Part shown: piece by piece, positions 8,187-47,160 of the stretch
Layout: each line of letters begins with the position of its first letter
Position numbering within the stretch: the stretch's first letter is position 1
From: Escherichia coli
GTDB taxonomy: Bacteria; Pseudomonadota; Gammaproteobacteria; Enterobacterales; Enterobacteriaceae
Length of the DNA stretch: 64,000 nt
Reading direction: 5' to 3' (one strand)
NCBI RefSeq assembly: GCF_048403405.1
Contig: NZ_CP183129.1
The notes under the pieces: generated by a model
Databases searched by the model: none
What the model was told of the DNA's origin: nothing
The model's input: the letters and a program-made list of their open reading frames with translations, nothing else
Made by a program: the position numbers and the translations under genes

Positions 8187-9871
8187 TTGAAGAAGGTTTG
8201 GCTTAACCGTTATCCCGCGGACGTTCCGACGGAGATCAACCCTGACCGTTATCAATCTCTGGTAGATATGTTTGAGCAGTCGGTCGCGCGCTATGCCGAT
8301 CAACCCGCGTTTGTGAATATGGGGGAGGTGATGACCTTCCGCAAACTGGAAGAACGCAGTCGCGCGTTTGCCGCTTATTTGCAACAAGGGTTGGGACTGA
8401 AGAAAGGCGATCGCGTTGCGTTGATGATGCCTAATTTATTGCAATATCCGGTGGCGCTGTTTGGCATTTTGCGTGCCGGGATGATCGTTGTAAACGTTAA
8501 CCCGTTGTATACCCCGCGTGAGCTTGAGCATCAGCTTAACGATAGCGGCGCATCGGCGATTGTTATCGTGTCTAACTTTGCCCACACTCTGGAAAAAGTG
8601 GTTGATAAAACCGCCGTTCAGCACGTAATTCTGACCCGTATGGGCGATCAGCTATCTACGGCAAAAGGCACGGTAGTCAATTTCGTTGTTAAATACATCA
8701 AGCGTCTGGTGCCGAAATACCATCTGCCAGATGCCATTTCATTTCGTAGCGCCCTGCACAACGGCTACCGGATGCAGTACGTCAAACCCGAACTGGTGCC
8801 GGAAGATTTAGCTTTCCTGCAATACACCGGCGGTACCACTGGTGTGGCGAAAGGCGCGATGCTGACTCACCGCAATATGCTGGCGAACCTGGAACAGGTT
8901 AACGCGACCTATGGTCCGCTGTTGCATCCGGGCAAAGAGCTGGTGGTGACGGCGCTGCCGCTGTATCACATTTTTGCCCTGACCATTAACTGCCTGCTGT
9001 TTATCGAACTGGGGGGCAGAACCTGCTTATCACTAATCCGCGCGATATTCCTGGGTTGGTAAAAGAGTTAGCGAAATATCCGTTTACCGCTATCACTGGC
9101 GTTAACACCTTGTTCAATGCGTTGCTGAACAATAAAGAGTTCCAGCAGCTGGATTTCTCCAGTCTGCATCTTTCCGCAGGCGGAGGGATGCCTGTTCAGC
9201 AAGTGGTGGCAGAACGTTGGGTGAAACTGACTGGACAGTATCTGCTGGAAGGTTATGGCCTGACCGAGTGTGCGCCGCTGGTCAGCGTTAACCCGTATGA
9301 TATTGATTATCATAGCGGTAGCATCGGTTTGCCGGTGCCATCGACGGAAGCCAAACTGGTGGATGACGACGACAACGAAGTACCACCGGGTCAACCGGGT
9401 GAGCTTTGTGTCAAAGGGCCGCAGGTGATGCTGGGTTACTGGCAGCGTCCGGATGCTACCGATGAAATCATCAAAAATGGCTGGTTACACACCGGCGACA
9501 TCGCGGTGATGGATGAAGAAGGATTCCTGCGTATTGTCGATCGCAAAAAAGACATGATTCTGGTTTCCGGTTTTAACGTCTATCCCAACGAGATTGAAGA
9601 TGTCGTCATGCAGCATCCTGGCGTACAGGAAGTCGCGGCTGTTGGCGTACCTTCCGGCTCCAGTGGTGAAGCGGTGAAAATCTTCGTAGTGAAAAAAGAT
9701 CCATCGCTTACCGAAGAGTCACTGGTGACTTTTTGCCGCCGTCAGCTCACGGGCTACAAAGTACCGAAGTTGGTGGAGTTTCGTGATGAGTTACCGAAAT
9801 CTAACGTCGGAAAAATTTTGCGACGAGAATTACGTGACGAAGCGCGCGGCAAAGTGGACAATAAAGCCTGA
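8187..9871 (+). pseudogene. fadD: long-chain fatty acid-CoA ligase, interrupted by a -1 frameshift in this sequence
   Basis: TTG at 8187 reads [14 protein letters not shown]…FIELGG then hits a stop at 9060; the next frame continues [23 protein letters not shown]… to 9871; one base missing after the G6 run at 9011-9017; the two parts total 561 codons. Confidence 0.85.
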
Positions 9872-13298: not shown

Positions 13299-14909
13299 TC
13301 AGTTGTCGCCTTTGAATACGGTTCCCGCAGGGAGCACTGGCGTTTTTTCCGGGGCTTCAACCGGTGTCTGCGGGAGATAATGTTCAACTTGATGAGCCGG
13401 AATGTCGGCGTAATCCTGTTTCAGCCAGCGAATAAAGCCACCGACTTTCACCAGTAAAATAACGAGGAAGGGCAGGGCTGTAAGTACCACAGTGGTTTTC
13501 ATGGTTTCCAGCGACGCGCCAGTAAATAAGATAGACAGTGGAATCAGGGTGATAACCACGCACCAGAACAGGCGAAGAGCACGGTCAGGGTCGTCACCTT
13601 CCTTAAGATTTCGCGTACTGGTCGCCGCCATGGTGTAGGCCACCGCATCCATATGCGAGGCAAGGAAAATAATCATCACGCCCAGGTATGCGGCGAGGAA
13701 CAATTTACCGGCTGGCAACGACATCAGAACTTGCTGCACAGCTGTCTCGCCGCCCAGTGTTTCCAGCACCTGTGGGACGTTGATTACGCCATTGATAAAC
13801 TGGTGAATGGCATAGCTTTCCATTACGCCGAAGAAGAACCAGCAACCGACGGTGCTGCCGAGGATCAGTCCCCAGATAACTTCTTTAATCTTACGACCGC
13901 GTGAAACGCGTGTGACAAACATTGCTACGCCAGGGGTGTATGAAATCCACCACAGCCAGTAGAAAACGGTCCAGTTGCGGGGAAATGAACCATCGCCAAG
14001 CGGATCGGTGAATAAGCTCATTTGCAGGAAGTTTTGCGTGGTCAGGCCGATGGCATTGATGATGCTGTTGGTAATAAATTCGGTTGGACCGACAATCAGC
14101 ACCAGTAATGGCAGCAGGAACGCGCCCCAGCCAACCATTTTGCTCAGACGTTGCAAACCGTTGTTGATACCAATCCACGAGCTTAGGCAAAAAATGCCGC
14201 CGGAAAGCAGGATCACAAATGCCTGCACGGTGAAGTTATCGGGTAAACCGGTCAGCGCGGAAAGCCCACGAGTAAAGGTTGCTGCGGTAACAACAAGGGA
14301 AATGGTCAGCGCACCGACAGTGGCGATCAGGAACATCAAATCGACCAGTTTTCCCCACGGGCCTTGCGGGCGAACGCCGGTAATCGCGGCAATAATGCCG
14401 GAAAGGCTCAGACCTTTGTTTTTCCGCACATGAAAGTGATAAGCCATGATTAATGAGGCCAGCGTATAAGTTGCCCAGGCGCTGATGCCCCAGTGGAAGA
14501 AGGAGTAAGGGACGCTAAATTCGAGTGCCTGTTGTGAACGCGGTGCGATATTTAATCCAGGTGTTTGATAATAATAGGCCCATTCAGCACCCCCCCAATA
14601 AAGCGTAGAAGAACCTAAACCGGCACAAATAAACATAAACAGCCAGGAGAGCGTGCTGTATTCCGGTTTTCCTTCTCCAAGACGAATATTGCCGTATTTA
14701 CTGGTGGCTAAATAAATCACCAGTCCCATTGCCAGCAAAACCAATACCTGTACGGCGGAACCTAACGTACGCGTAACAAAAGTGTATATTGCGTTGGCCG
14801 CGTCGGCCGATTGTTGTGGGAAAAGGCTTAATGCAGCTGCGATGAAAAGAATGGCCACCAGGCTGATGCTTATCAGCGGCACATCTTTTTTCTTAACATT
14901 GCTCATCAT
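13299..14909 (-). CDS. yeaV: BCCT-family transporter (carnitine/betaine type)
   Basis: 536-aa ORF with 12 predicted TM segments, aligns along its length with CaiT-like transporters; exact start codon uncertain. Confidence 0.8.
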
Positions 14910-15113
14910 GAGTCATCTCCTGGGCATAAAAGCCCGTCTCTGGCTTTTGCCAGTTGTAATTATTTGCAGGGTAATGAGTTGCATGTTGTGTTTAACAAAT
15001 TGATTATTTACATGTTACATAAATTAAACAATTAAGAATACGGAAAGCCATAAAACACGAAACGGAAACAATAAAAGGTGAAATGACGCAGGTTATTAAC
15101 TGCAAAGAACGAA

Positions 15114-15140
15114 TAAAAAAACCGCGTCAGTGACGCGGTT
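15114..15140 (-). terminator. intrinsic terminator downstream of dmlA
   Basis: Perfect palindrome ACCGCGTCA-G-TGACGCGGT flanked by A7 on the plus strand (U-tract on minus). Confidence 0.8.
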
Positions 15141-15159
15141 CAAATAAACTGGTTTGACC

Positions 15160-16245
15160 TTAACGCAAAATAATTTTGCAAATCGCGTCGGCAACCTGTG
15201 GCGTGGTGGCATTGCCTTTCATATCAGGTGTTTTCGGCCCGTGAGCAATCACTTCTTCAATCGCGGCCAGAATACCGTTATGCGCTTGCTGGAAACGCTC
15301 ATCGCCATTGCCGAGAAAATCGAGCATCATTGCACCGGCCCAAATTGTGGCGATAGGGTTAGCAATGTTTTTCCCGTAGATATCCGGCGCGGAACCGTGG
15401 ACTGGCTCGAAGAGCGACGGGAAAGTGCGTTCCGGATTCAGGTTGGCGGATGGGGCAATGCCAATGGTGCCGGTGCAGGCCGGGCCAAGATCGGAAAGGA
15501 TATCGCCAAACAAATTGGACGCCACTACCACATCGAAGCGTTCCGGCTGCATCACAAAACGCGCGCAGAGAATATCAATATGCTGCTTGTCCCAGCAGAT
15601 CTCCGGGTAATTCTCGGCCATTGCTTCCACTCGCTCATCCCAGTACGGCATGCTGATGGCTAAACCGTTCGATTTAGTGGCAGAAGTTAGCGTCTTACGT
15701 GGGCGGCTTTGCGCAAGTTCGAAGGCATAACGCAAAATGCGATCGACACCACGACGCGTAAATACCGATTCCTGAATGACGACTTCATGCTCTGTACCTT
15801 CATTCACTCTGCCGCCGAGCGAGGAATATTCGCCTTCGGTGTTTTCCCTGACCACGTAAAAATCGATGTCGCCAGGCTGTTTTCCCGCCAGCGGGCAGGG
15901 AACGCCAGGAAAGAGACGAACCGGGCGCAGGTTGACGTACTGGTCGAATTCACGACGAAATTTCAGCAGCGAACCCCACAACGAAATATGGTCCGGAACG
16001 GTGTCCGGCCAGCCGACGGCACCAAAATAGATGGCGTCGAAACGGCTAAGTTGCTCATGCCAGTCGTCCGGCATCATTTTACCGTGATGGCTGTAATACT
16101 CGCAGCTCGCCCACTCCATTTGCTCAAAACTCAAGGCGAAGCCCCAGCGCTCAGCGGCAGCCTGTAACACGCGAATCCCTTCAGGAAGGACTTCTTTGCC
16201 AATCCCGTCTCCCGGGATCGCAGCAATACGCATCGTTTTCATCAT
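15160..16245 (-). CDS. dmlA: D-malate / 3-isopropylmalate dehydrogenase (decarboxylating)
   Basis: 361-aa ORF, isocitrate/isopropylmalate dehydrogenase family (MMKTMRIAAIPGDGIGKEV…). Confidence 0.92.
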   Translation of the reverse strand: MMKTMRIAAIPGDGIGKEVLPEGIRVLQAAAERWGFALSFEQMEWASCEYYSHHGKMMPDDWHEQLSRFDAIYFGAVGWPDTVPDHISLWGSLLKFRREFDQYVNLRPVRLFPGVPCPLAGKQPGDIDFYVVRENTEGEYSSLGGRVNEGTEHEVVIQESVFTRRGVDRILRYAFELAQSRPRKTLTSATKSNGLAISMPYWDERVEAMAENYPEICWDKQHIDILCARFVMQPERFDVVVASNLFGDILSDLGPACTGTIGIAPSANLNPERTFPSLFEPVHGSAPDIYGKNIANPIATIWAGAMMLDFLGNGDERFQQAHNGILAAIEEVIAHGPKTPDMKGNATTPQVADAICKIILR

Positions 16246-24625: not shown

Positions 24626-25976
24626 TCATGAACGGCTGTTTTTGTTCTGCTTATTGACATATAAACGCTCATCGGAAGCTTTATACGCATCATGTAACGT
24701 ATCGTTTTCTTTCATCGCGTAAATACCGGAAGAGAAGCCGATCTCTTTCTGCGGCGCGATATGTTGCAGACGTTTTTCGATACGTTCAGGCAGTTGTGCT
24801 GCAATTTGCGGCGTCGAATCGACTAGAATGATGCAGAATTCATCGCCACCGAGTCGGATGGCATAATCACTTTTACGAATCGACTGTTTAATCGCCTGAG
24901 CTAATAACGTAATCGCTAAATCCCCCTCCTGATGACCGAGGGTGTCATTTATTTGCTTTAACTTGTCCATGTCAATTGCAATAAACATCACCGAAGAACC
25001 GGATTGCACCAGTTTTTGCAACCGCTGCTCCAGTTCAGGGGTTAAAATTTTGCGATTATACAGTCCTGTCATCGCATCACTAATATTTTCTCGCGACACA
25101 TTTTGGTATAAACGGAAGTGCATCCGCACCATATTCAGCAAAATTAACGCCGTCAAAATCCAGAACAGAACGCTTTTCCACGAAGACGTGATAAAGTAAA
25201 GAATATCAATGGATAACGAGACACGAATGCCGCCCGGTAAGTCATGGACGTAACTGACATACTGGAACAGATTATCTTCGCTCTGGTTGATGATAATGTC
25301 GCGCCCCGAATCGGTATCGGTTAGCGTGACATTGAGAAAACGCCAGAGGAGAGGGCGGTCATGAGTGTAAAAGATATTCCGCAGATTGTTTTTGTTAATA
25401 TCCAGCAGCACAATCCCTTTTAGCTGCCCTGCGACATATACCGGCGTCAGCAAACTCATCACGTTCTGTTTAGTACGCTGATCCTGGTAAATGCTCGATA
25501 AAACGGTACGCCCGGTAAATACCTTTTCAATATCTTTGCGATCGATGCCAATACTTCCTGACTGCAGGAAAGACCAGTTATTCATCGCAAAGTACTCAAC
25601 ATTAACCGGCTCATAAAAATAGACATAGCGGTCATTGAGATCGAGATAATAGTGAAATTTCTCGTCGGCCATCCCAAGACCTGAACCGTAATCATCCTGG
25701 TGGCGGTTGCCTTCCACTGCCTGATCAAAAGCGGGTAATAGTGCTGCAGCTTCCACAATTGTGTCGCAGTCAGTGGATGCGGTTTGTAGTGTGCCGCGTA
25801 AGCCAGGGTATTTATGGGCAGTCAGGTTTAAGCCATGGGTATTATTTGCAGACTCAAAAGCCTCGCAGATGGTGCGCCGCTGTTCTGGCGACAAGTTCAA
25901 AAATAAGGAAGGAAGATGTCAGCACAATGACACTTGCGGCGATAAAATGCCGGAGCATTCTATGGTGCAATTTCAT
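24626..25976 (-). pseudogene. dgcJ: diguanylate cyclase DgcJ, N-terminal segment out of frame with the body
   Basis: ATG at 25976 encodes the TM N-terminus MKLHHRMLRHFIAASVIVLTSSFLIFELV…, which stops at 25854; the 424-aa body (…RxxD I-site RKSD, GGDEF RLGGDEFCIIL) is in the +1 frame from 25900. Confidence 0.75.
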
Positions 25977-34253: not shown

Positions 34254-35261
<1,008 letters not shown>

Positions 35262-35590
35262 CTATTTGTTAGTGAATAAAAGGTTGCCTGTAAAATTACA
35301 AAAACCTTACGCAGCGTCAAGCGGAATCGTGTCAATCATTGCGACAAATCAATCCTGTGCCTAAGCATTACGCGACTGACTCGCCTCACTCTTCCTTTGG
35401 GCTTGAGACCACATGGGGTCGGCGTCCCGAATTTTAAAGGGCAATTACGATAAAAATGTGATTTTCATCACGATTTAGGTGCAGCCATTTCGTCGAGATC
35501 AAGTTTAGGACAAATTTTTGCCAGTTGGTGTTAATGTTTTGTTAGAATCAGTCACGTAATGTGAGCACGATTAAAGTGAGATGTGAGCAA

Positions 35591-36004
35591 ATGGCTAATA
35601 AACCTTCGGCAGAAGAACTGAAAAAAAATTTGTCCGAGATGAAGTTCTACGTGACGCAGAATCATGGGACAGAGCCGCCATTTACGGGTCGTTTACTGCA
35701 TAACAAGCGTGACGGCGTATATCACTGTTTGATCTGCGATGCCCCGCTGTTTCATTCCCAAACCAAGTATGATTCCGGCTGTGGCTGGCCCAGTTTCTAC
35801 GAACCGGTGAGTGAAGAATCCATTCGTTATATCAAAGACTTGTCACATGGAATGCAGCGCATAGAAATTCGTTGCGGTAACTGTGATGCCCATCTGGGGC
35901 ATGTCTTCCCCGACGGGCCGCAGCCAACGGGTGAACGTTATTGTGTTAACTCAGCCTCTTTACGCTTTACCGATGGCGAAAACGGCGAAGAAATCAACGG
36001 TTGA
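35591..36004 (+). CDS. msrB: peptide methionine-(R)-S-oxide reductase
   Basis: Start taken at [14 protein letters not shown]… (137 aa); two CxxC zinc motifs and catalytic SelR domain. Confidence 0.9.
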
Positions 36005-36045
36005 AAAAACGATTCAGCAACTTATTCCACAGGAGCGGAAAAATT

Positions 36046-36318
36046 ATGAATCTTGATGACATTATCAACAGCATGACGCTTGAGGTATACCAGCGTTTGT
36101 CGACCGCCGTTGAATTGGGCAAATGGCCTGATGGCGTTGCGTTGACCGAGGAACAAAAAGAGAACTGCCTGCAACTGGTGATGCTGTGGCAAGCCCGCAA
36201 TAATACCGAAGCACAGCATATGACAATTGACACAAATGGTCAGATGGTCATGAAGAGCAAACAACAGTTAAAAGAAGATTTTGGTATCTCAGCAAAGGCT
36301 ATTGCCATGTTTAAGTAA
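36046..36318 (+). CDS. yeaC: DUF1315 family protein
   Basis: Start taken at MNLDDIINSMTLEVYQRL… (90 aa). Confidence 0.85.
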   Translation: MNLDDIINSMTLEVYQRLSTAVELGKWPDGVALTEEQKENCLQLVMLWQARNNTEAQHMTIDTNGQMVMKSKQQLKEDFGISAKAIAMFK

Positions 36319-36533
36319 GTGGTTTGTCCCCTTTTTGCCGCGGTTATAAAGGGGATAGCCAACAATAACCCCACGACTCATCTCAATTATCTCGTCACGA
36401 CCAGGCTAAGTCCCAGCCCGGTCTCTTGCAGTCGCGTTCACGCCTGAATGACTTCTCCTGAACTTAAGTCTCAGACCTATTTGGCCGGTAATCCCTCTCA
36501 AATTTGCTCATTTTGCGTTCCGCCTTCCATCAA

Positions 36534-36612
36534 CCTGTAACAGATCCAGCCATTTTCTGCGTAATTGTGATCTGAGTTGTAAAACGCAGATCATTATCTG
36601 TGTTTTACAGAT
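36534..36612. promoter_or_regulatory. array of ATCTG/CAGAT inverted half-sites upstream of ydjL (candidate operator)
   Basis: CAGATC at 36541, GATCTG-N12-CAGATC at 36570-36593, CAGAT-N4-ATCTG at 36587-36600, ATCTG-N7-CAGAT at 36596-36612; ends about 75 bp before the ydjL start. Confidence 0.4.
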
Positions 36613-36687
36613 TTAATGTTGACCTCAAAAATCATGTGGGTAAGTATGATGACCATCTAAGCAAAACAAAACACAGAGGATGACGCA

Positions 36688-37764
36688 ATGAAAGCACTGG
36701 CTCGGTTTGGCAAAGCCTTTGGCGGCTACAAGATGATCGATGTCCCACAACCCATTTGTGGCCCGGAAGATGTAGTGATTGAAATTAAAGCCGCGGCAAT
36801 CTGCGGCGCAGACATGAAGCACTACAATGTCGATAGCGGTTCTGATGAGTTTAACTCTATCCGCGGCCATGAGTTCGCAGGTTGTATTGCGCAGGTTGGT
36901 GAAAAAGTCAAAGACTGGAAAGTGGGGCAACGCGTCGTGTCGGATAACAGCGGTCACGTCTGCGGCGTTTGTCCGGCCTGTGAACAAGGTGATTTTCTGT
37001 GTTGTACAGAAAAAGTAAACCTTGGTCTGGATAACAATACCTGGGGCGGTGGTTTTTCCAAATATTGTCTGGTTCCTGGTGAAATTCTCAAAATTCATCG
37101 TCATGCATTGTGGGAAATCCCTGATGGTGTTGATTATGAGGACGCAGCCATACTTGACCCTATCTGTAATGCCTATAAATCCATCGCGCAGCAATCGAAA
37201 TTCCTCCCTGGTCAGGATGTGGTCGTCATCGGCACTGGCCCACTCGGGCTGTTCTCCGTACAAATGGCGCGGATTATGGGGGCGGTAAATATCGTCGTCG
37301 TTGGTCTACAAGAAGATGTGGCGGTCCGCTTCCCGGTTGCAAAAGAACTGGGTGCGACGGCAGTAGTAAATGGTTCTACCGAAGATGTGGTGGCGCGCTG
37401 CCAGCAAATTTGTGGCAAAGACAATCTGGGACTGGTGATTGAATGCTCCGGTGCCAATATCGCACTGAAACAAGCCATCGAAATGCTCCGTCCGAACGGG
37501 GAAGTGGTACGCGTTGGAATGGGCTTCAAACCTCTTGATTTCTCGATTAATGACATTACCGCCTGGAACAAAAGCATCATTGGGCATATGGCCTATGACT
37601 CCACCTCATGGCGTAACGCTCTCCGGCTATTAGCCAGCGGCGCTATCAAAGTCAAACCGATGATCACGCATCGTATCGGCCTGTCGCAATGGCGCGAAGG
37701 GTTTGATGCGATGGTCGATAAAACCGCAATCAAAGTGATCATGACTTACGACTTTGATGAATAA
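36688..37764 (+). CDS. ydjL: zinc-dependent alcohol/polyol dehydrogenase (MDR family)
   Basis: 358-aa ORF; zinc ligands GHEFAGCIAQVG and structural-zinc cysteines CGVCPACEQGDFLCC. Confidence 0.9.
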   Translation: MKALARFGKAFGGYKMIDVPQPICGPEDVVIEIKAAAICGADMKHYNVDSGSDEFNSIRGHEFAGCIAQVGEKVKDWKVGQRVVSDNSGHVCGVCPACEQGDFLCCTEKVNLGLDNNTWGGGFSKYCLVPGEILKIHRHALWEIPDGVDYEDAAILDPICNAYKSIAQQSKFLPGQDVVVIGTGPLGLFSVQMARIMGAVNIVVVGLQEDVAVRFPVAKELGATAVVNGSTEDVVARCQQICGKDNLGLVIECSGANIALKQAIEMLRPNGEVVRVGMGFKPLDFSINDITAWNKSIIGHMAYDSTSWRNALRLLASGAIKVKPMITHRIGLSQWREGFDAMVDKTAIKVIMTYDFDE

Positions 37765-37790
37765 CTACTCTCCTGAAGGAACGTTATCGC

Positions 37791-39170
37791 ATGGAACAGA
37801 TAACAAAACCGCATTGTGGTGCACGGCTGGATCGCTTACCGGATTGCCGCTGGCATTCGTCAATGTTTGCCATCGTCTCGTTTGGCTTGCTTGTCTGCTG
37901 GAGTAATGCCGTTGGTGGCTTGATCCTCGCGCAGCTGAAAGAGTTGGGCTGGACAGATAATTCCACCACTGCCACATTCTCAGCAATCACGACCGCCGGA
38001 ATGTTTCTCGGTGCGCTGGTTGGCGGCATCATCGGTGACAAAACCGGTCGCAGAAATGCGTTCATCCTCTATGAGGCCATTCATATTGCCTCGATGGTGG
38101 TCGGTGCTTTTTCACCGAATATGGATTTCCTTATTGCCTGCCGTTTTGTGATGGGCGTTGGGCTGGGAGCTTTACTGGTGACGCTGTTTGCTGGTTTCAC
38201 CGAATATATGCCCGGTAGAAATCGCGGAACGTGGTCCAGTCGGGTTTCTTTTATTGGCAACTGGTCATATCCGCTCTGTTCATTGATTGCGATGGGACTC
38301 ACGCCGCTGATTAGTGCAGAGTGGAACTGGCGAGTACAACTGCTTATCCCTGCAATATTGTCGCTTATCGCTACGGCGCTGGCCTGGCGCTACTTTCCTG
38401 AATCCCCGCGCTGGCTGGAATCGCGCGGACGGTATCAGGAAGCCGAGAAAGTCATGCGGAGTATAGAAGAAGGCGTCATACGCCAGACGGGAAAACCTTT
38501 GCCGCCCGTGGTTATTGCTGATGACGGTAAAGCGCCACAAGCGGTGCCGTATTCAGCCTTAATGACAGGAGTATTACTGAAACGCGTGATATTAGGCTCT
38601 TGTGTGCTGATTGCCATGAACGTTGTGCAGTACACACTAATTAACTGGTTGCCAACAATATTCATGACCCAGGGGATTAATTTAAAAGACTCGATTGTTT
38701 TAAATACCATGAGTATGTTTGGCGCGCCATTTGGTATTTTTATTGCTATGCTGGTGATGGATAAAATTCCGCGTAAAACAATGGGTGTGGGGCTATTAAT
38801 CCTGATTGCGGTGCTCGGATATATCTATTCACTGCAAACCAGTATGTTGCTCATAACGTTGATTGGTTTCTTCCTGATTACTTTCGTCTATATGTACGTT
38901 TGCTATGCCTCGGCAGTGTATGTCCCTGAGATCTGGCCGACAGAGGCCAAATTACGTGGCTCCGGTCTGGCGAATGCAGTAGGGCGAATCAGTGGTATTG
39001 CCGCACCTTATGCCGTTGCAGTGCTGCTCAGTAGTTATGGCGTAACGGGAGTCTTTATTCTTCTGGGGGCGGTTTCAATTATTGTCGCAATTGCTATCGC
39101 CACCATTGGAATTGAAACCAAAGGTGTCTCCGTTGAAAGTTTAAGTATTGATGCAGTAGTCAATAAATAA
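37791..39170 (+). CDS. ydjK: MFS sugar-acid type transporter
   Basis: 459-aa ORF with 12 TM helices. Confidence 0.9.
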   Translation: MEQITKPHCGARLDRLPDCRWHSSMFAIVSFGLLVCWSNAVGGLILAQLKELGWTDNSTTATFSAITTAGMFLGALVGGIIGDKTGRRNAFILYEAIHIASMVVGAFSPNMDFLIACRFVMGVGLGALLVTLFAGFTEYMPGRNRGTWSSRVSFIGNWSYPLCSLIAMGLTPLISAEWNWRVQLLIPAILSLIATALAWRYFPESPRWLESRGRYQEAEKVMRSIEEGVIRQTGKPLPPVVIADDGKAPQAVPYSALMTGVLLKRVILGSCVLIAMNVVQYTLINWLPTIFMTQGINLKDSIVLNTMSMFGAPFGIFIAMLVMDKIPRKTMGVGLLILIAVLGYIYSLQTSMLLITLIGFFLITFVYMYVCYASAVYVPEIWPTEAKLRGSGLANAVGRISGIAAPYAVAVLLSSYGVTGVFILLGAVSIIVAIAIATIGIETKGVSVESLSIDAVVNK

Positions 39171-39186
39171 TACTGGTGGATTCAAA

Positions 39187-40230
39187 ATGAAAAATTCAAA
39201 AGCAATATTGCAGGTGCCGGGCACAATGAAAATTATTTCAGCAGAAATACCTGTGCCTAAAGAAGATGAAGTTTTGATTAAAGTGGAATATGTCGGTATT
39301 TGTGGTTCAGATGTACATGGTTTTGAATCAGGCCCGTTTATTCCGCCTAAAGACCCAAATCAAGAAATTGGCTTGGGTCATGAATGCGCCGGGACGGTTG
39401 TGGCTGTGGGAAGCCGTGTGCGCAAATTTAAAGCGGGGGATCGGGTAAATATCGAACCTGGCGTTCCTTGCGGTCACTGTCGTTACTGTCTGGAAGGCAA
39501 ATATAACATCTGCCCGGACGTTGATTTTATGGCGACACAACCTAACTACCGCGGCGCATTAACGCACTATCTGTGTCATCCGGAGAGCTTTACTTACAAA
39601 CTGCCCGACAATATGGACATGATGGAAGGGGCGCTGGTGGAGCCTGCTGCAGTCGGGATGCATGCCGCGATGCTGGCAGATGTTAAACCGGGTAAGAAGA
39701 TAATTATTCTGGGAGCGGGTTGTATTGGTTTGATGACGTTGCAAGCGTGCAAATGCCTGGGAGCTACGGATATTGCCGTCGTTGATGTACTGGATAAACG
39801 TCTGACAATGGCGGAACAGCTCGGCGCGACAGTGGTTATTAACGGTGCAAAAGAAGACACTATTGCACGCTGTCAGCAATTTACCGAAGAAATGGGCGCA
39901 GATATTGTTTTCGAAACAGCGGGTTCTGCGGTCACCGTTAAACAGGCACCTTATCTGGTAATGCGCGGCGGTAAAATTATGATTGTTGGTACTGTACCGG
40001 GCGATTCGGCAATCAATTTCCTCAAAATCAATCGCGAAGTCACTATTCAGACAGTATTCCGCTATGCCAATCGTTATCCGGTCACGATTGAAGCTATTTC
40101 CTCAGGGCGATTCGATGTGAAATCGATGGTGACACATATTTACGATTATCAGGATGTACAACAGGCATTTGAAGAGTCGGTTAACAACAAACGCGACATT
40201 ATTAAAGGCGTTATTAAAATTAGCGATTAA
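39187..40230 (+). CDS. ydjJ: zinc-dependent polyol dehydrogenase (MDR family)
   Basis: 347-aa ORF; GHECAGTVVAVG and CGHCRYC zinc motifs; Rossmann GAGCIG. Confidence 0.9.
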   Translation: MKNSKAILQVPGTMKIISAEIPVPKEDEVLIKVEYVGICGSDVHGFESGPFIPPKDPNQEIGLGHECAGTVVAVGSRVRKFKAGDRVNIEPGVPCGHCRYCLEGKYNICPDVDFMATQPNYRGALTHYLCHPESFTYKLPDNMDMMEGALVEPAAVGMHAAMLADVKPGKKIIILGAGCIGLMTLQACKCLGATDIAVVDVLDKRLTMAEQLGATVVINGAKEDTIARCQQFTEEMGADIVFETAGSAVTVKQAPYLVMRGGKIMIVGTVPGDSAINFLKINREVTIQTVFRYANRYPVTIEAISSGRFDVKSMVTHIYDYQDVQQAFEESVNNKRDIIKGVIKISD

Positions 40231-40250
40231 TTAATACGGGAGAACAGAAT

Positions 40251-41087
40251 ATGCTCGCAGATATCAGATATTGGGAAAACGATGCCACAAATAAACATTA
40301 TGCAATTGCCCATTTTAACGTATGGAATGCAGAAATGTTGATGGGCGTTATCGACGCAGCCGAAGAAGCGAAATCACCGGTTATTATTTCTTTTGGTACA
40401 GGTTTTGTCGGGAACACCTCATTTGAAGATTTCTCTCACATGATGGTATCAATGGCAAAAAAAGCAACGGTGCCGGTAATAACTCATTGGGATCATGGTC
40501 GGAGTATGGAAATTATTCATAACGCCTGGACTCATGGTATGAATTCATTAATGCGTGATGCTTCCGCATTTGATTTCGAAGAAAATATTCGTTTAACCAA
40601 AGAGGCTGTTGATTTCTTCCATCCGCTGGGTATTCCGGTAGAGGCAGAATTAGGGCATGTCGGTAATGAAACCGTTTATGAAGAAGCGCTGGCGGGCTAT
40701 CACTATACCGATCCTGACCAGGCGGCTGAATTTGTTGAACGTACGGGCTGTGACTCATTGGCTGTCGCCATCGGCAACCAACATGGGGTTTATACGTCAG
40801 AGCCACAATTGAATTTTGAGGTCGTCAAACGCGTACGCGATGCCGTTTCTGTTCCGCTGGTTTTGCACGGCGCATCGGGGATCAGTGATACCGACATTAA
40901 AACTGCAATTTCGTTGGGTATCGCGAAAATCAACATTCATACGGAGCTCTGTCAGGCCGCAATGGTAGCAGTGAAAGAAAACCAGGATCAGCCTTTCCTG
41001 CATTTAGAACGTGAAGTACGTAAAGCTGTAAAAGAACGGGCATTGGAAAAAATTAAACTGTTCGGTTCTGATGGCAAAGCGGAATAA
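40251..41087 (+). CDS. ydjI: class II (metal-dependent) ketose-bisphosphate aldolase
   Basis: 278-aa ORF, FbaA/KbaY-like (…HWDHGRSM…, …LHGASGISD…). Confidence 0.9.
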   Translation: MLADIRYWENDATNKHYAIAHFNVWNAEMLMGVIDAAEEAKSPVIISFGTGFVGNTSFEDFSHMMVSMAKKATVPVITHWDHGRSMEIIHNAWTHGMNSLMRDASAFDFEENIRLTKEAVDFFHPLGIPVEAELGHVGNETVYEEALAGYHYTDPDQAAEFVERTGCDSLAVAIGNQHGVYTSEPQLNFEVVKRVRDAVSVPLVLHGASGISDTDIKTAISLGIAKINIHTELCQAAMVAVKENQDQPFLHLEREVRKAVKERALEKIKLFGSDGKAE

Positions 41088-41091
41088 TGAT

Positions 41092-42039
41092 ATGGATAAT
41101 CTCGACGTTATTTGTATAGGTGCCGCTATTGTTGATATTCCATTGCAACCGGTCAGTAAAAATATCTTTGATGTGGATTCTTATCCTCTTGAAAGAATCG
41201 CAATGACCACCGGGGGTGATGCAATAAATGAAGCAACAATTATTTCTCGTCTGGGCCATCGCACAGCATTAATGAGTCGTATTGGTAAAGATGCCGCCGG
41301 GCAATTTATTCTCGACCATTGCCGCAAAGAGAATATTGATATTCAAAGCCTGAAGCAGGACGTCAGCATAGATACCTCAATTAACGTTGGACTGGTGACG
41401 GAGGATGGCGAGCGGACGTTTGTCACAAACTGTAACGGCAGTCTGTGGAAATTGAATATTGACGATGTTGATTTTTCGCGGTTTTCTCAGGCGAAATTAT
41501 TATCTCTGGCCAGTATTTTCAACAGTCCTCTATTGGATGGTAAAGCGCTAACAGAAATTTTTACGCAAGCTAAAGCCCGGCAGATGATTATCTGTGCCGA
41601 TATGATCAAACCGCGGTTGAATGAAACGCTGGATGATATTTGCGAAGCATTGAGTTATGTCGATTATCTGTTTCCTAATTATGCCGAGGCAAAATTACTC
41701 ACCGGGAAAGAGACACTGGAGGAAATTGCTGACTGCTTTCTTGCGTGCGGCGTAAAAACGGTGGTGATTAAAACGGGTAAAGACGGCTGCTTTATCAAGC
41801 GTGGTGACATGACGATGAAGGTGCCGGCGGTCGCAGGAATAACCGCCATCGACACCATTGGCGCGGGCGATAACTTTGCTTCAGGTTTTATTGCGGCACT
41901 GTTAGAAGGCAAAAATCTGCGTGAATGCGCACGCTTTGCCAATGCAACGGCGGCTATCTCGGTTCTAAGCGTCGGTGCCTCCACCGGCGTAAAAAACAGA
42001 AAGCTGGTCGAACAATTGCTGGAAGAATACGAAGGATAA
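41092..42039 (+). CDS. ydjH: PfkB-family sugar kinase
   Basis: Start taken at MDNLDVICIGAAIVD… (315 aa); PfkB signature GAGDNFASGF. Confidence 0.88.
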   Translation: MDNLDVICIGAAIVDIPLQPVSKNIFDVDSYPLERIAMTTGGDAINEATIISRLGHRTALMSRIGKDAAGQFILDHCRKENIDIQSLKQDVSIDTSINVGLVTEDGERTFVTNCNGSLWKLNIDDVDFSRFSQAKLLSLASIFNSPLLDGKALTEIFTQAKARQMIICADMIKPRLNETLDDICEALSYVDYLFPNYAEAKLLTGKETLEEIADCFLACGVKTVVIKTGKDGCFIKRGDMTMKVPAVAGITAIDTIGAGDNFASGFIAALLEGKNLRECARFANATAAISVLSVGASTGVKNRKLVEQLLEEYEG

Positions 42040-42048
42040 TGAAGGCAA

Positions 42049-43029
42049 ATGAAAAAGATACCTTTAGGCACAACGGATATTACGCTTTCGCGAATGGGGT
42101 TGGGGACATGGGCCATTGGCGGCGGTCCTGCATGGAATGGCGATCTCGATCGACAAATATGTATTGATACGATTCTTGAAGCCCATCGTTGCGGCATTAA
42201 CCTGATTGATACTGCGCCAGGATATAACTTTGGCAATAGTGAAGTTATCGTCGGTCAGGCGTTAAAAAAACTGCCCCGTGAACAGGTTGTAGTAGAAACC
42301 AAATGCGGCATTGTCTGGGAACGAAAAGGGAGTTTATTCAACAAAGTTGGCGATCGGCAGTTGTATAAAAACCTTTCCCCGGAATCTATCCGCAAAGAGG
42401 TAGAAGCCAGCTTGCAACGTCTGGGTATTGATTACATCGATATCTACATGACGCACTGGCAGTCGGTGCCGCCATTTTTTACGCCGATCGCTGAAACTGT
42501 CGCAGTGCTCAATGAGTTAAAGGACGAAGGGAAAATTCGCGCTATAGGCGCTGCTAACGTCGATGCTGACCATATCCGCGAGTATCTGCAATATGGTGAA
42601 CTGGATATTATTCAGGCGAAATACAGTATCCTCGACCGGGCAATGGAAAGCGAACTGCTGCCGCTATGTCGTGATAATGGCATTGTGGTACAGGTTTATT
42701 CGCCGTTAGAGCAGGGATTGTTGACCGGTACCATCACTCGTGATTACGTTCCGGGCGGCGCTCGGGCAAATAAAGTCTGGTTCCAGCGTGAAAACATGCT
42801 GAAAGTGATTGATATGCTTGAACAGTGGCAGCCACTCTGTGCTCGTTATCAGTGCACAATTCCCACTCTGGCACTGGCGTGGATATTAAAACAGAGTGAT
42901 TTAATCTCCATTCTTAGTGGGGCTACTGCACCGGAACAGGTACGCGAAAATGTCGCGGCATTGAATATCAACTTATCGGATGCAGACGCAACATTGATGA
43001 GGGAAATGGCAGAGGCCCTGGAGCGTTAA
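42049..43029 (+). CDS. ydjG: aldo-keto reductase
   Basis: 326-aa ORF, AKR family. Confidence 0.9.
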   Translation: MKKIPLGTTDITLSRMGLGTWAIGGGPAWNGDLDRQICIDTILEAHRCGINLIDTAPGYNFGNSEVIVGQALKKLPREQVVVETKCGIVWERKGSLFNKVGDRQLYKNLSPESIRKEVEASLQRLGIDYIDIYMTHWQSVPPFFTPIAETVAVLNELKDEGKIRAIGAANVDADHIREYLQYGELDIIQAKYSILDRAMESELLPLCRDNGIVVQVYSPLEQGLLTGTITRDYVPGGARANKVWFQRENMLKVIDMLEQWQPLCARYQCTIPTLALAWILKQSDLISILSGATAPEQVRENVAALNINLSDADATLMREMAEALER

Positions 43030-43054
43030 ATACTCAACACGATTCACCTCTGTT

Positions 43055-43083
43055 TCTGTGAAAACTGTGATGAAAATCTGTGA
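43055..43083 (+). promoter_or_regulatory. three direct CTGTGA repeats upstream of ydjF (candidate autoregulatory operator)
   Basis: CTGTGA at 43056, 43065 and 43078; shares the ATCTGTG core with the ydjL-upstream array. Confidence 0.3.
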
Positions 43084-43165
43084 TTCAAACAGGTTATTTT
43101 GAAAGTAAACATCGGTTATGCGATAATCGCGCTAATGTGATGTAAAAAGATACAGGGGTGTAATC

Positions 43166-43923
43166 GTGGCGGCAAAAGACAGGATTCAGGCAATTAAGCA
43201 AATGGTTGCCAACGATAAAAAGGTGACAGTCTCAAATTTGAGTGGGATTTTTCAGGTAACCGAAGAAACCATTCGCCGCGATCTCGAGAAGCTGGAAGAT
43301 GAAGGCTTTTTGACCAGAACCTATGGTGGTGCTGTTTTAAATACAGCGATGTTGACGGAGAATATCCATTTTTATAAGCGCGCTTCATCGTTTTATGAAG
43401 AGAAGCAGCTTATTGCACGCAAGGCACTACCCTTTATCGACAATAAAACCACTATGGCAGCCGATTCCAGTAGTACCGTTATGGAATTGCTCAAATTGTT
43501 GCAGGACCGTAGTGACCTGACGTTGCTAACTAACTCGGCGGAAGCGATTCATGTTCTGGCTCAATCAGAAATTAAAGTCGTTTCAACGGGGGGGAACTAA
43601 ACAAAAATACACTTTCCCTGCAAGGAAGAATTACTAAAGAGATCATCAGCCGCTACCATGTCGATATCATGGTAATGAGTTGTAAAGGTCTTGATATTAA
43701 CAGCGGCGCGCTGGACTCTAACGAAGCGGAAGCTGAAATCAAAAAGACAATGATCCGTCAGGCGACAGAGGTTGCGTTATTGGTTGATCACTCTAAGTTT
43801 GATCGCAAAGCTTTTGTCCAGTTAGCTGACTTTAGTCATATTAATTACATAATAACTGATAAATCACCGGGTGCAGAGTGGATAGCATTTTGCAAAGACA
43901 ATAATATCCAGCTGGTGTGGTAA
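43166..43923 (+). pseudogene. ydjF: DeoR-family transcriptional regulator, interrupted by a frameshift in this sequence
   Basis: GTG at 43166 encodes the HTH N-terminus and stops after …VVSTGGN at 43600; the next frame continues ELNKNTLSLQGRITKEIISRYHVDIMVMSCKG… to 43923; break lies in the G7 run 43588-43594; the two parts total 252 codons. Confidence 0.85.
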
Positions 43924-44040
43924 TTTAAGCACACGTTGTCAATATTATTTGTTCCTGCGCCTGGAAAATAAAATGATGATAAAGATGCGGCAAGTGAATT
44001 TGCCGCAATTGCTACCTTTTTAGCAAATCCGAGGCACCTA

Positions 44041-45399
44041 ATGGAACAATATGATCAAATTGGCGCAAGACTGGACCGCTTGCCTTTGGCCCGGTTTCAT
44101 TATCGTATATTTGGTATTATAAGCTTTAGTCTGTTATTAACGGGTTTTTTGAGTTATTCAGGCAATGTTGTTTTAGCAAAGCTGGTAAGCAATGGATGGT
44201 CAAATAATTTCCTCAATGCCGCCTTTACCTCGGCATTAATGTTTGGTTATTTCATCGGCTCTCTTACCGGTGGGTTCATCGGTGATTATTTTGGGCGGCG
44301 CAGGGCTTTTCGCATAAATCTTCTCATCGTCGGTATTGCGGCAACAGGGGCCGCTTTTGTCCCTGATATGTACTGGCTCATCTTCTTTCGCTTCCTGATG
44401 GGCACAGGAATGGGGGCGCTGATTATGGTTGGCTATGCTTCGTTTACGGAGTTTATCCCCGCGACGGTGCGTGGAAAATGGTCCGCGCGGCTCTCATTTG
44501 TCGGTAACTGGTCGCCCATGTTGTCTGCGGCGATAGGCGTGGTGGTTATCGCTTTTTTTAGTTGGCGGATAATGTTTCTGCTGGGTGGTATTGTCATACT
44601 GTTAGCCTGGTTTCTCTCAGGTAAATACTTTATTGAGTCGCCTCGATGGTTGGCGGGGAAAGGACAAATCGCAGGTGCAGAAAGCCAACTTCGTGAAGTA
44701 GAGCAGCAAATTGAAAGAGAGAAGAGTGTTCGTTTACCCCCGCTTACTTTGAATCAGAGCAACAGCAAGGCTAACGTAATCAATGGTACTTTCTGGCTGC
44801 TGTTTAAAGGGGAAATGTTACGACGTACATTAGTCGCGATTACTGTTTTAATTGCAATGAATATTTCACTTTATACCATCACCGTATGGATACCGACCAT
44901 ATTTGTTAACTCCGGCATTGATGTCGATAAATCAATATTAATGACTGCTGTTATTATGATTGGCGCTCCGGTAGGAATATTTATTGCGGCATTAATTATT
45001 GATCATTTTCCTCGTCGATTATTTGGCTCCGCCTTACTTATTATTATTGCCGTGTTAGGCTATATCTATTCAATTCAGACTACAGAGTGGGCGATTTTAA
45101 TCTATGGCCTGGTGATGATCTTCTTTTTATACATGTATGTTTGCTTCGCGTCGGCGGTTTATATCCCGGAGCTCTGGCCAACGCATTTACGCTTGCGCGG
45201 TTCGGGTTTCGTTAATGCCGTCGGACGGATCGTCGCGGTCTTCACGCCTTATGGCGTTGCGGCACTATTAACGCATTATGGGTCAATCACGGTGTTTATG
45301 GTGCTTGGCGTGATGTTAGTGCTCTGTGCGCTGGTTCTCTCCATTTTTGGCATCGAAACGCGGAAGGTGTCGCTGGAAGAGATTTCTGAGGTGAATTAA
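44041..45399 (+). CDS. ydjE: MFS transporter
   Basis: 452-aa ORF with 12 TM helices, paralogous to ydjK. Confidence 0.9.
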   Translation: MEQYDQIGARLDRLPLARFHYRIFGIISFSLLLTGFLSYSGNVVLAKLVSNGWSNNFLNAAFTSALMFGYFIGSLTGGFIGDYFGRRRAFRINLLIVGIAATGAAFVPDMYWLIFFRFLMGTGMGALIMVGYASFTEFIPATVRGKWSARLSFVGNWSPMLSAAIGVVVIAFFSWRIMFLLGGIVILLAWFLSGKYFIESPRWLAGKGQIAGAESQLREVEQQIEREKSVRLPPLTLNQSNSKANVINGTFWLLFKGEMLRRTLVAITVLIAMNISLYTITVWIPTIFVNSGIDVDKSILMTAVIMIGAPVGIFIAALIIDHFPRRLFGSALLIIIAVLGYIYSIQTTEWAILIYGLVMIFFLYMYVCFASAVYIPELWPTHLRLRGSGFVNAVGRIVAVFTPYGVAALLTHYGSITVFMVLGVMLVLCALVLSIFGIETRKVSLEEISEVN

Positions 45400-45439
45400 A
45401 TCTTTCGTTGATGGCGTCAATTGCCAGATGTACCACTGA

Positions 45440-45474
45440 CGTGTTTTATCTGGCCTACAATGGCAGTACAGAAT
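45440..45474. repeat. REP-like palindrome between convergent ydjE and pncA
   Basis: 12-bp arms CTGGCCTACAAT / ATTGTAGGCCAG around an 11-nt loop. Confidence 0.6.
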
Positions 45475-45491
45475 TGTAGGCCAGCATAAAA

Positions 45492-46133
45492 TTACTCCTG
45501 CGTCTCTTCCCAGTCTGCCAGCGTATATAGCGTTGCCCCAGCTGCTGACATCTCCATAAACGCGTGCGCACTGTCCTGTGGCTGGATATTCACACCACGA
45601 CAACCATCGGTAATCACATTAACCTTATAACCTAACTGTAACGCGTCCAGTACGGTAAACTTCACGCAATAGTCAGTAGCCAGGCCCATAATGATCAATT
45701 CATCGATTTCATGATCGCGTAACCAGTCATCGAGCGTGGTTTTCTGCCGACGGCCGTTATCAAAAAAGGCACTGTAACTGTCAACTAAAGGATTTTCGCC
45801 TTTATGGAACACCGCTGCGATCGCTTTTTGGTTCAGTAACGGATGTAATTGTGCGCCTTCACTGTTCTGCACACAGTGATCTGGCCAGAAGGTTTGTGGC
45901 AAACCGTCGAGTTGGCCTGGCGTATAAGGCTCTACACCGTGCTGACTGGCAAAACTGCCGTGATTCGCCGGGTGCCAGTCCTGACTGGCGATAACCGCTT
46001 CACCGCGCGACTGGCACCAGTCAATCAGGCGGTTAGCGACATCCACCGTACTGTCACCTTCCGGCACGGCGAGCGCGCCACCAGCACAGAAATCATTTTG
46101 TAAATCGACCAGTAACAGGGCGCGAGGGGGCAT
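45492..46133 (-). CDS. pncA: nicotinamidase / pyrazinamidase
   Basis: Start taken at MPPRALLLVDLQNDFCAGG… (213 aa); isochorismatase-like fold. Confidence 0.9.
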   Translation of the reverse strand: MPPRALLLVDLQNDFCAGGALAVPEGDSTVDVANRLIDWCQSRGEAVIASQDWHPANHGSFASQHGVEPYTPGQLDGLPQTFWPDHCVQNSEGAQLHPLLNQKAIAAVFHKGENPLVDSYSAFFDNGRRQKTTLDDWLRDHEIDELIIMGLATDYCVKFTVLDALQLGYKVNVITDGCRGVNIQPQDSAHAFMEMSAAGATLYTLADWEETQE

Positions 46134-46143
46134 TGCAGTCTCC

Positions 46144-47160
46144 TTAATCATCCGGCGTCAGTTCGCCGCGCAGGTTTTGGCTCATGGCCTTGCGAATGGT
46201 TTCAGTATCCAGTTCCTGGCTAAGCAGGTAATGCAGTTTGGTTAGTGTGGCTTCTACAGTCATATCTGCACCGCCAATAACGCCGGCATGGGCGAGGGCG
46301 TTACCGGTGGCATAACCACCCATGTTCACTTTACCGGACATACATTGTGTCAGGTTGACCACCACAATACCGCGATCGCTGGCTTCTTGTAATTCCTGCA
46401 GGAAGGCTTTGTTTTGTGGCGCATTACCCACGCCATATGAGCGCAGAATCAATGCTTTCACCGGTTGGCGCAGAAAATTGCGCACGACGTCAGCAGAAAT
46501 CCCTGGATAAATCGTCACTACGCCAATCGGTTGTGGGGTGATTGGATGAACGATCAATTCCCCTTCACCGTGCGGGGCGGGTGGCGTATTCAAACGACGA
46601 ATATGGATACCTGCTTCCAGTAACGGAGGAAGGTTTGGAGAGGCAAACGCATCAAAACCATCGGCATGGGCTTTGGTGGTACGGTTGCCACGATAAAGTC
46701 GATTATTAAAAAAGAGAGTTACTTCGTTGATAGGATAATTCGCCGCAACGTACAACGCATTCAGCAGATTAATTTGTCCGTCAGAGCGTAACTCAGCTAG
46801 CGGGATTTGTGACCCTGTCACAATGACCGGTTTACCGAGATTCTCGAGCATGAACGACAGCGCAGAGGCGGTATACGCCATCGTGTCGGTGCCGTGCAGA
46901 ATGACAAAACCATCATAGTCGTCATAATGCGCTTTAATATCTTCAGCAATATGCTGCCAGTCTTCTGGCGTCATATCTGAAGAGTCCATCAGCGGCGTAT
47001 ATTCATGAATGGTGAAATCTGGCATCTCCGGGCGATGGAATTCCGGCATCAGCGCCAGTTGGCGCTGTAGATGACCTGACACCGGAATATAACCCTGCTC
47101 GGAACGCTGCATCCCGATGGTCCCGCCCGTGTAGGCGACGTAAATTGATTTCTTTTGCAT
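46144..47160 (-). CDS. ansA: cytoplasmic L-asparaginase 1
   Basis: Start taken at MQKKSIYVAYTGGTIGMQ… (338 aa); asparaginase threonine motif TGGTIG. Confidence 0.92.
   Translation of the reverse strand: MQKKSIYVAYTGGTIGMQRSEQGYIPVSGHLQRQLALMPEFHRPEMPDFTIHEYTPLMDSSDMTPEDWQHIAEDIKAHYDDYDGFVILHGTDTMAYTASALSFMLENLGKPVIVTGSQIPLAELRSDGQINLLNALYVAANYPINEVTLFFNNRLYRGNRTTKAHADGFDAFASPNLPPLLEAGIHIRRLNTPPAPHGEGELIVHPITPQPIGVVTIYPGISADVVRNFLRQPVKALILRSYGVGNAPQNKAFLQELQEASDRGIVVVNLTQCMSGKVNMGGYATGNALAHAGVIGGADMTVEATLTKLHYLLSQELDTETIRKAMSQNLRGELTPDD

Follow-up and report, generated by a model that had tools for sequence, protein, structure and literature searches.

The ydj genes of Escherichia coli form a sugar-catabolic cluster, ydjLKJIHG-ydjF-ydjE, which is analysed here in a 64,000-nt stretch of one E. 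coli chromosome (contig NZ_CP183129.1, the whole of which is called the window). Its closest described counterpart is the cluster of strain K-12 (b1776-b1769), which has the same genes in the same order and with the same flanks (yeaC and pncA); the structures of YdjI, YdjH and YdjJ match the proteins of the window with E-values of about 1e-187 or lower. The window departs from K-12 in ydjF, which is frameshifted in a run of seven G (G7) that stands in place of the run of eight (G8) of its lineage. A related logic is found in the L-fucose and L-rhamnose systems (FucK/FucA/FucO and RhaB/RhaD), where a 2-ketose 1-kinase is followed by a class II aldolase yielding dihydroxyacetone phosphate (DHAP) and an aldehyde, and by an aldehyde oxidoreductase. 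The ydj cluster has this logic in common with them, given the C1 phosphorylation reported for YdjH, the DHAP-forming cleavage reported for YdjI and the presence alongside of the aldehyde-reducing YdjG; FucR of the fucose system is also, like YdjF, a member of the DeoR family. In contrast to these systems, the ydj cluster has no isomerase but two Zn-dehydrogenases, which suggests entry from a polyol or an aldonate and not from an aldose. YdjI is a class II aldolase of the FbaA/GatY/KbaY type, a fold family other than that of FucA and RhaD. The substrates differ as well, those preferred in vitro by YdjH and YdjI being long-chain monosaccharides of seven to nine carbons with a terminal carboxylate, according to PMC9602453, which summarises Huddleston and Raushel 2019. 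The galactitol/tagatose (gat) and L-idonate/5-ketogluconate (idn) systems are linked to ydj through their enzymes: YdjI is most similar to tagatose- and fructose-bisphosphate aldolases, while YdjJ and YdjL match the L-idonate 5-dehydrogenase and galactitol-1-phosphate 5-dehydrogenase models (E 1e-31 to 1e-51) at scores far below the equivalog cut-offs. Unlike them, ydj lacks a phosphotransferase system, and its reported substrates are different. Finally, the deo and glp regulons likewise combine a DeoR-family regulator with several spaced operator-like sites, in ydj one within the first gene and one at the regulator's own promoter. DeoR and GlpR are known for repression through looping between multiple operators; in the case of YdjF, operator binding, looping and an effector are predictions.

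Biochemical knowledge of the system comes from K-12. YdjH phosphorylates L-glycero-L-galacto-octuluronate and related long-chain ketoses bearing a terminal carboxylate, and YdjI interconverts the 1-phosphate with DHAP and L-arabinuronate, as stated in PMC9602453 and PMC11194214. The former (2022) notes that the best YdjI substrate, L-glycero-L-galacto-octuluronate (as its 1-phosphate), 'has no natural abundance', and the ydj products' enzymatic roles are described there as 'only partially determined'. RefSeq has adopted these activities in the K-12 product names (L-glycero-L-galacto-octuluronate kinase for YdjH and L-glycero-L-galacto-octuluronate-1-phosphate aldolase for YdjI) and still calls YdjL, YdjJ, YdjK, YdjE and YdjF 'putative'. 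YdjG is a characterised methylglyoxal reductase (PMC6561318). The initial annotation had stated that the cluster has no established physiological substrate. This stands in so far as no paper found in the literature to mid-2026, subscription-only papers being outside coverage, names a natural substrate or inducer; it understates what is known, since YdjH and YdjI have defined in vitro substrates and specificities, YdjG has an assigned activity, and structures have been solved for YdjI (PDB 6OFU), YdjH (3H49/3IN1) and YdjJ (5VM2).

As to physiology, the promoter of ydjL shows no activity in culture and is turned on in the mouse gut (PMC6561318), which places the operon among the few E. coli promoters shown to switch on specifically there. 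The ydjLKJIHG operon is listed among Crp-activated operons (PMC8085971), a CRP site was obtained at ydjF by systematic evolution of ligands by exponential enrichment (SELEX; PMC3105977), and Rho-dependent termination occurs early within ydjL (bioRxiv 2020.07.18.207399). On the basis of the gut-specific promoter, the Crp listing and the early Rho termination, expression would be inducible and normally silent.

Between yeaC and pncA, the region has the known accessory island ydjLKJIHG-ydjF-ydjE as an insertion. It is an already described and poorly understood system, not a new one, as the initial annotation had correctly recognised. The eight genes occupy 36688-45399 on the + strand in the order L-K-J-I-H-G-F-E, coordinates that the initial annotation had given exactly, as the list of open reading frames (ORFs) attests; near-identical E. 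coli genomes carry the same gene names in the same order in RefSeq. From 36000 to 46000, the window matches 5,425 of the 5,426 complete genomes of E. coli, and it is in essence the same there as in a set of human and environmental isolates. Seven of the eight proteins are intact and differ from K-12 by 2-10 residues each. The cluster was nevertheless called complete, which does not hold for ydjF: instead of an intact 252-aa ORF, it has a reading frame that stops after residue 144. With gaps of 4-26 nt between its genes, ydjLKJIHG can be taken as a single operon.

Within E. coli, the ydjL-ydjE block is a presence/absence polymorphism, an accessory-island status that had been overlooked. It is found in ~80% of complete genomes (4,265-4,328 of 5,426) and is cleanly missing from ~20%; in most genomes without it yeaC stands directly beside pncA, the whole 9-kb block being gone. 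A few genomes carry IS3- or IS5-family insertions inside the block or a partial deletion, and in some of them ydjE or ydjK is no longer named. The G+C content of the cluster is 46.3%, ~4 points below the 50.5% of the rest of the window. The borders of the island lie at 36318-36688 and 45399-45492.

The protein families proposed initially (two zinc dehydrogenases, two transporters of the major facilitator superfamily (MFS), a class II aldolase, a PfkB kinase, an aldo-keto reductase and a DeoR regulator) are borne out by profile and structure matches. Both YdjL and YdjJ contain ADH_N and ADH_zinc_N domains and are Zn-dependent medium-chain dehydrogenases, but neither reaches the cut-off of an equivalog model (threonine, idonate or galactitol-1-phosphate dehydrogenase); YdjJ matches 5VM2 (E 1.7e-230), with a ketose reductase and sorbitol dehydrogenases as the next best structures. 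YdjK and YdjE are assigned to the MFS by family searches. YdjI scores 324.5 bits against the ketose-bisphosphate aldolase model TIGR00167 (cut-off 215.6), making it a class II aldolase, and matches 6OFU ('YdjI aldolase') over residues 1-278 (E 7.6e-187). YdjH is homologous to solved PfkB/ribokinase-family sugar kinases, namely 3H49/3IN1, deposited as 'sugar kinase ydjH' (E 2.9e-203), and fructokinase and ribokinase structures, and reaches no NCBIfam equivalog cut-off. YdjG exceeds the cut-off of the methylglyoxal reductase equivalog NF049922 (626.6 versus 550 bits). Among the structure matches searched, neither YdjL nor YdjG has a solved structure of its own. The octuluronate kinase and 1-phosphate aldolase activities are presumed for YdjH and YdjI of the window from their 98-99% identity to the K-12 proteins and from the K-12 product names. 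At position 41721 (ydjH codon 210), the window has G where both close relatives compared have T, giving YdjH D210E, which is counted among the five residues that differ from K-12.

The module extends far beyond E. coli. Scanning for YdjI with one genome per species yielded 80 loci, in which the order L-K-J-I-H-G-F is conserved not only in Escherichia, Citrobacter, Klebsiella, Raoultella, Yokenella and Budvicia but also in many Lachnospiraceae and other Clostridia, in Veillonella, Megamonas and Anaerococcus, and in Erysipelotrichaceae and Atopobiaceae. A Synergistaceae contig contains L, J, I, G and H, and Gilliamella has the genes in a rearranged order. Outside Enterobacterales, identity to the E. 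coli proteins is 74-87% for YdjI and 68-86% for YdjL, an unusual conservation across gut phyla. Throughout the 80 loci, ydjE accompanies the core in Enterobacterales only. Its absence from the cross-phylum core, together with the altered aromatic-acid export (acetophenone and 3-phenyllactate, both identified tentatively; PMC10971958) upon its knockout and overexpression, makes ydjE a probable bystander outside the conserved module, contrary to its initial inclusion. This cross-phylum synteny, the enterobacterial restriction of ydjE, the gene variants described below and a candidate YdjF operator are what the present analysis adds.

The variants bear on the substrate. In 28 non-enterobacterial loci, a symporter of the SDF family (DctA-like) follows ydjF (for instance at 14337-15704 in locus L028 and 13645-15003 in L068), and 11-12 loci, mostly without ydjK, contain a Liv-type ATP-binding cassette (ABC) system with a Peripla_BP_6 binding protein (2082-6181 in L079, 2125-6896 in L081). 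In non-enteric bacteria, SDF or Liv-type ABC genes mostly replace ydjK or ydjE, and candidate YdjF operators lie upstream of many of them. Because non-enterobacterial modules carry these transporters, an acidic substrate is independently supported: the families point to a carboxylate, in agreement with the in vitro preference. This narrows the search for the substrate, the acidic compound being indicated by alternative transporters under the same candidate operator, and the soluble binding protein of the ABC variants, encoded for example at 2125-3492 in L081 and 2082-3491 in L079, offers a practical handle for ligand discovery. No conserved glycoside hydrolase or isomerase was seen alongside the module among the related loci, which makes a free small molecule the probable substrate. 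No conclusion on the substrate was drawn from aminotransferase, RraA-like and 5-oxoprolinase-like neighbours, which are present in just 6-8 related loci. Thirty non-enterobacterial loci have an additional Ribul_P_3_epim gene between ydjL and ydjK, nearest to D-allulose-6-phosphate 3-epimerase (AlsE) at 255 bits, below the 271-bit cut-off; this AlsE-like gene hints at C3 epimerisation of a ketose phosphate. It is found in loci L027-L047, L049, L052, L065, L068-L071, L073, L078, L082 and L085 (for example at 6660-7355 in L038), and E. coli is without it.

These elements can be assembled into a pathway whose outline (uptake, oxidation, phosphorylation and aldol cleavage of a polyol or sugar acid) the initial annotation had right. 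An acidic polyol or keto-sugar acid would be imported by YdjK, or elsewhere by SDF or ABC transporters, converted to the 2-ketose level by YdjL and/or YdjJ, phosphorylated at C1 by YdjH and cleaved by YdjI into DHAP and an aldehyde-acid, which YdjG or one of the dehydrogenases would then reduce or oxidise. Of this scheme, what has been demonstrated is the set of genes present, the reactions reported for YdjH and YdjI, and the activity of YdjG. A role mainly in stress protection (methylglyoxal or aldehyde detoxification, acid tolerance or osmotolerance) in place of carbon catabolism seems improbable. It would accommodate the reduction of methylglyoxal by YdjG, the better growth in high salt upon ydjK overexpression (PMC6561318) and the over-representation of ydj genes in lactic-acid-resistant E. 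coli from meat plants (PMC9602453), but this last link is confounded with phylogroup according to the same source, and a kinase with a DHAP-forming aldolase, transporters and a regulator of the sugar type, in an order that is conserved from phylum to phylum, make up a catabolic layout.

Control of the pathway was approached through the upstream sequences. Strong conservation among enterobacterial genera is seen in the spacer between ydjG and ydjF and in some 120 nt upstream of ydjL. In 22 Enterobacterales ydjL upstream regions, the TTGAC of the probable ydjL promoter is invariant and A2 and T6 of its -10 hexamer are conserved; this promoter (features in Table 1) was chosen on conservation, since a consensus scan passed over it (3 of 6 matches in the -10) in favour of an overlapping TTTACA-17-AAAAAT. 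Overall, the scan gave 15 sites, against 16.3 expected from shuffled sequence. Because its -35 is good but its -10 weak, the ydjL promoter probably needs an activator, a role in which CRP has been reported. In the same 22 regions, the TGTGA of a block further upstream is invariant and the sequence beyond it unrelated. A search upstream of both genes, ydjL and ydjF, for a canonical CRP box (TGTGA-N6-TCACA) brought up just isolated TGTGA half-sites and TGTGA in direct repeats, and no CRP site is claimed. Three direct TGTGAT repeats, none of them a canonical CRP box, surround the ydjF promoter in the ydjG-ydjF spacer (43066-43149) and may be related to the CRP SELEX peak at ydjF.

An ATCTGTG..CAGAT-like sequence stands directly upstream of the -35 of both the ydjL and the ydjF promoter. 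Exact-palindrome patterns derived from E. coli were mostly missing from Firmicutes upstream regions, and the common motif emerged only from k-mer counting. An unbiased 8-mer count was made for 54 non-enterobacterial loci over 250 nt of ydjL upstream sequence. The 8-mers shared by the most loci build TCT[G/T]TGTTT[C/T]AAAGATTT, present in 38 of the 54 and often beside a TTGACA -35, in 2-4 copies. This pseudo-palindrome of ~17 bp, TCTKTGTTT..AAAGAT, is a candidate YdjF operator. A matrix built from 63 non-enterobacterial sites only was then used to scan both strands of the window, where its three top matches all fall in the ydj cluster or its upstream region: O1 (27.4 bits), O2 (18.4 bits) and O3 (14.7 bits), followed by a next best of 12.2 bits. 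With a 14-bit threshold, O1 occupies positions -92 to -95 from the ydjL start in 18 of 21 Enterobacterales loci; O2 is at +305 in all 21, and in 15 of them O3-type matches of at least 14 bits are placed at roughly +6390-6515 relative to the start of ydjL. O2 coincides with the third-codon-position conservation peak of ydjL (0.97 in the best 7-codon window, gene mean 0.69). In Firmicutes, further clusters of sites precede SDF and ABC transporter genes, regions that were outside matrix training.

YdjF is the most likely binder of O1, O2 and O3 as judged from comparative genomics, because its orthologue is the only regulator that travels with the module across phyla. It would thus be bound at three places, beside the ydjL -35, inside ydjL at +305 and beside the -35 of its own promoter, and would most likely act as a multi-operator repressor of the DeoR/GlpR type, released by a phosphorylated intermediate of the pathway and superimposed on CRP dependence and Rho-dependent termination. 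An activator role for YdjF, similar to that of FucR, is the rather less likely alternative: a real frameshift would then leave the operon uninducible and the cluster decaying instead of constitutive. Such a role would fit the placement of O1 and O3 just upstream of the -35 hexamers, where they cover neither the -10 nor the start site, the weak -10 of ydjL and the presence of FucR among the family matches of YdjF. However, most sugar regulators of the DeoR/GlpR family are repressors, the intragenic site at +305 and the Firmicutes arrays of 2-4 upstream sites suit looping repression better, and the seven structural genes are intact, with no decay seen. It is more doubtful still that some other factor than YdjF binds the pseudo-palindrome, or that the motif is an element of RNA or related to Rho. 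For the operon, both regulation by CRP and termination by Rho have been reported, and the hairpin-like inverted repeat at O1 was flagged as terminator-like; but the motif moves with the module into Firmicutes, Actinobacteria and Negativicutes, where the YdjF orthologue is the sole co-travelling regulator, and its presence in both orientations with respect to ydjL, as well as upstream of various transporter genes, suits a DNA site and not a transcript element. An Rfam search of 35000-46500 found no known RNA.

Several points weigh against repression by YdjF of a sugar-acid pathway. The tie of YdjF to the three sites comes entirely from comparative evidence, and the pattern with which sites were collected had already set nine positions in the core of the matrix, so that the independent evidence for the operator consists of the flanking positions, the locations, the sites at transporter genes and the synonymous-site signal. 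The sign of regulation is a guess, some DeoR-family members being activators and FucR appearing among the NCBIfam matches of YdjF. The pathway roles of YdjL, YdjJ and YdjG are read from family membership only. No natural source is known for the best in vitro substrate, so that the real one may have another chain length or another stereochemistry. Finally, YdjF has been placed among the uncharacterised factors of the DeoR family (PMC4797297). Taken as a whole, the combination of a known island, a sugar-acid pathway and multi-operator regulation by YdjF is held to be the probable explanation of the locus. A broader proposal is more tentative and falls somewhat short of an even chance, namely that the ydj genes are a horizontally shared catabolic regulon, mostly of gut bacteria, for a carboxylate-bearing polyol or keto-sugar acid, with the same order from Enterobacterales to Lachnospiraceae, Veillonella, Atopobiaceae and Gilliamella, with YdjF acting everywhere through one conserved operator that includes the intragenic ydjL site, and with the frameshift, if real, making the strain a natural regulator-null. 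The interest of the locus is modest and lies in the open question of the substrate, the cross-phylum conservation and an operator prediction that can be tested.

The frameshift in ydjF had escaped the initial annotation. Two ORFs, of 144 and 84 aa, occupy the interval from ydjG to ydjE in the window instead of a single one of 252 aa, and alignment with the nearest genomes places the lesion in the loss of one G from the G8 run. The truncated YdjF retains the N-terminal HTH_DeoR domain (PF08220, residues 6-60, E 7.9e-18) but keeps just 68 of the 160 positions of DeoRC, the C-terminal domain for sensing and oligomerisation (profile 3-71). The nearest relatives have the 252-aa protein, complete in its DeoRC domain, and YdjF of K-12 is likewise intact at 252 aa. 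K-12 has GGGTGGGG here, which a synonymous change of GGT to GGG converted into the G8 run in this lineage. The closest complete genome found is that of strain 4621, with 99.98% identity across the 64 kb; apart from 8 substitutions and the loss of 140 bp within dgcJ, the window differs from it by exactly two 1-bp indels. The second indel is a lost G at 9011-9016 in fadD (G6, versus G7 in strain 4621).

Whether the ydjF lesion is a mutation or an error in homopolymer length introduced by sequencing or assembly, in which case the ydj cluster of the strain is intact and ordinary, is a matter on which the evidence is about evenly divided. An error is suspected mainly because fadD shows the same type of lesion: the only two 1-bp indels relative to strain 4621 shorten the two longest G runs and disrupt two conserved genes. 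The substitutions comprise 4 transitions and 4 transversions, and a mismatch-repair mutator lineage as the cause of both G-run deletions is unsupported by this 4:4 ratio; without a transition bias or a mutator signature to account for run slippage, the pattern resembles homopolymer under-calling. Moreover, the G7 allele is rare, being found in 1 of the 947 RefSeq complete genomes that have the same 86-nt context. That genome, B1.H1.39, is on the other hand an independent complete genome with the identical allele, annotated by RefSeq as a 'frameshifted' pseudogene, and it differs from the window elsewhere; the G8 run is a real slippage hotspot; and the dgcJ deletion is no homopolymer artefact, so that the lineage may truly be gathering lesions. 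The shared G7 allele had first led to the assumption that the window is strain B1.H1.39 itself, which was rejected, as identity elsewhere is just 99.2-99.5%. If the frameshift is real, YdjF control is lost in this strain, with constitutive de-repression if YdjF is a repressor, and the strain would be a natural regulator-null mutant usable for finding the substrate.

Table 1. Genes, promoters, candidate operators and frameshift site of the ydj region (positions in the window)
Feature	Position	Strand	Description
ydjL	36688-37764	+	Zn-dependent medium-chain dehydrogenase, 358 aa, intact, 3 aa differences from K-12
ydjK	37791-39170	+	MFS transporter, 459 aa, intact, 4 aa differences from K-12
ydjJ	39187-40230	+	Zn-dependent dehydrogenase of sorbitol-dehydrogenase type, 347 aa, intact
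ydjI	40251-41087	+	Class II DHAP-dependent aldolase, 278 aa, intact, 2 aa differences from K-12
ydjH	41092-42039 (RefSeq start; longest ORF begins at 41071)	+	PfkB/ribokinase-family sugar kinase, 315 aa, intact, 5 aa differences from K-12
ydjG	42049-43029	+	Aldo-keto reductase, NADH-dependent methylglyoxal reductase, 326 aa, intact
ydjF	43166-43923	+	DeoR/GlpR-family regulator, frameshifted; ORF 43166-43600 (144 aa), remnant frame to 43923
ydjE	44041-45399	+	Second MFS transporter, 452 aa, intact
Conserved upstream block	36567-36588	+	TGTGATCTGAGTTGTAAAAC(GC); invariant TGTGA; candidate CRP half-site region, no canonical two-half-site box
O1, candidate YdjF operator	36594-36615	+	Core ATCTGTGTTTTACAGAT (36596-36612), 6 nt upstream of the ydjL -35; part of an inverted repeat
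ydjL promoter (probable)	36619-36647	+	-35 TTGACC (36619-36624), 17-nt spacer, weak -10 AAGTAT (36642-36647)
O2, candidate intragenic operator	36993-37014	+	TTTTCTGTGTTGTACAGAAAAA; ydjL codons 102-109
O3, candidate YdjF operator	43074-43095	+	Core ATCTGTGATTCAAACAG (43076-43092), 6 nt upstream of the ydjF -35
ydjF promoter	43099-43127	+	TTGAAA, 17-nt spacer, GATAAT preceded by TG; best promoter-like site of the region (10/12), conserved in Enterobacterales
G7 homopolymer	43588-43594	+	Frameshift site; G8 in close relatives, ACGGGTGGGGAA in K-12

Other differences of the window from its relatives lie outside the ydj cluster. The single-G loss in fadD (long-chain-fatty-acid-CoA ligase) breaks the gene into ORFs at 8121-9062 and 9056-9871. 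At 14590-14596, a run of seven C stands in place of A followed by six C in strain 4621, a substitution at a homopolymer edge and not an indel. The 140-bp deletion in dgcJ, located at ~25885 and seen relative to both strains 4621 and B1.H1.39, has a direct repeat of 9 bp, CTGGCGACA, at its flanks. Being out of frame, it deprives the diguanylate cyclase DgcJ of its normal N-terminal part, and leaves an ORF at 24626-25900 on the - strand.

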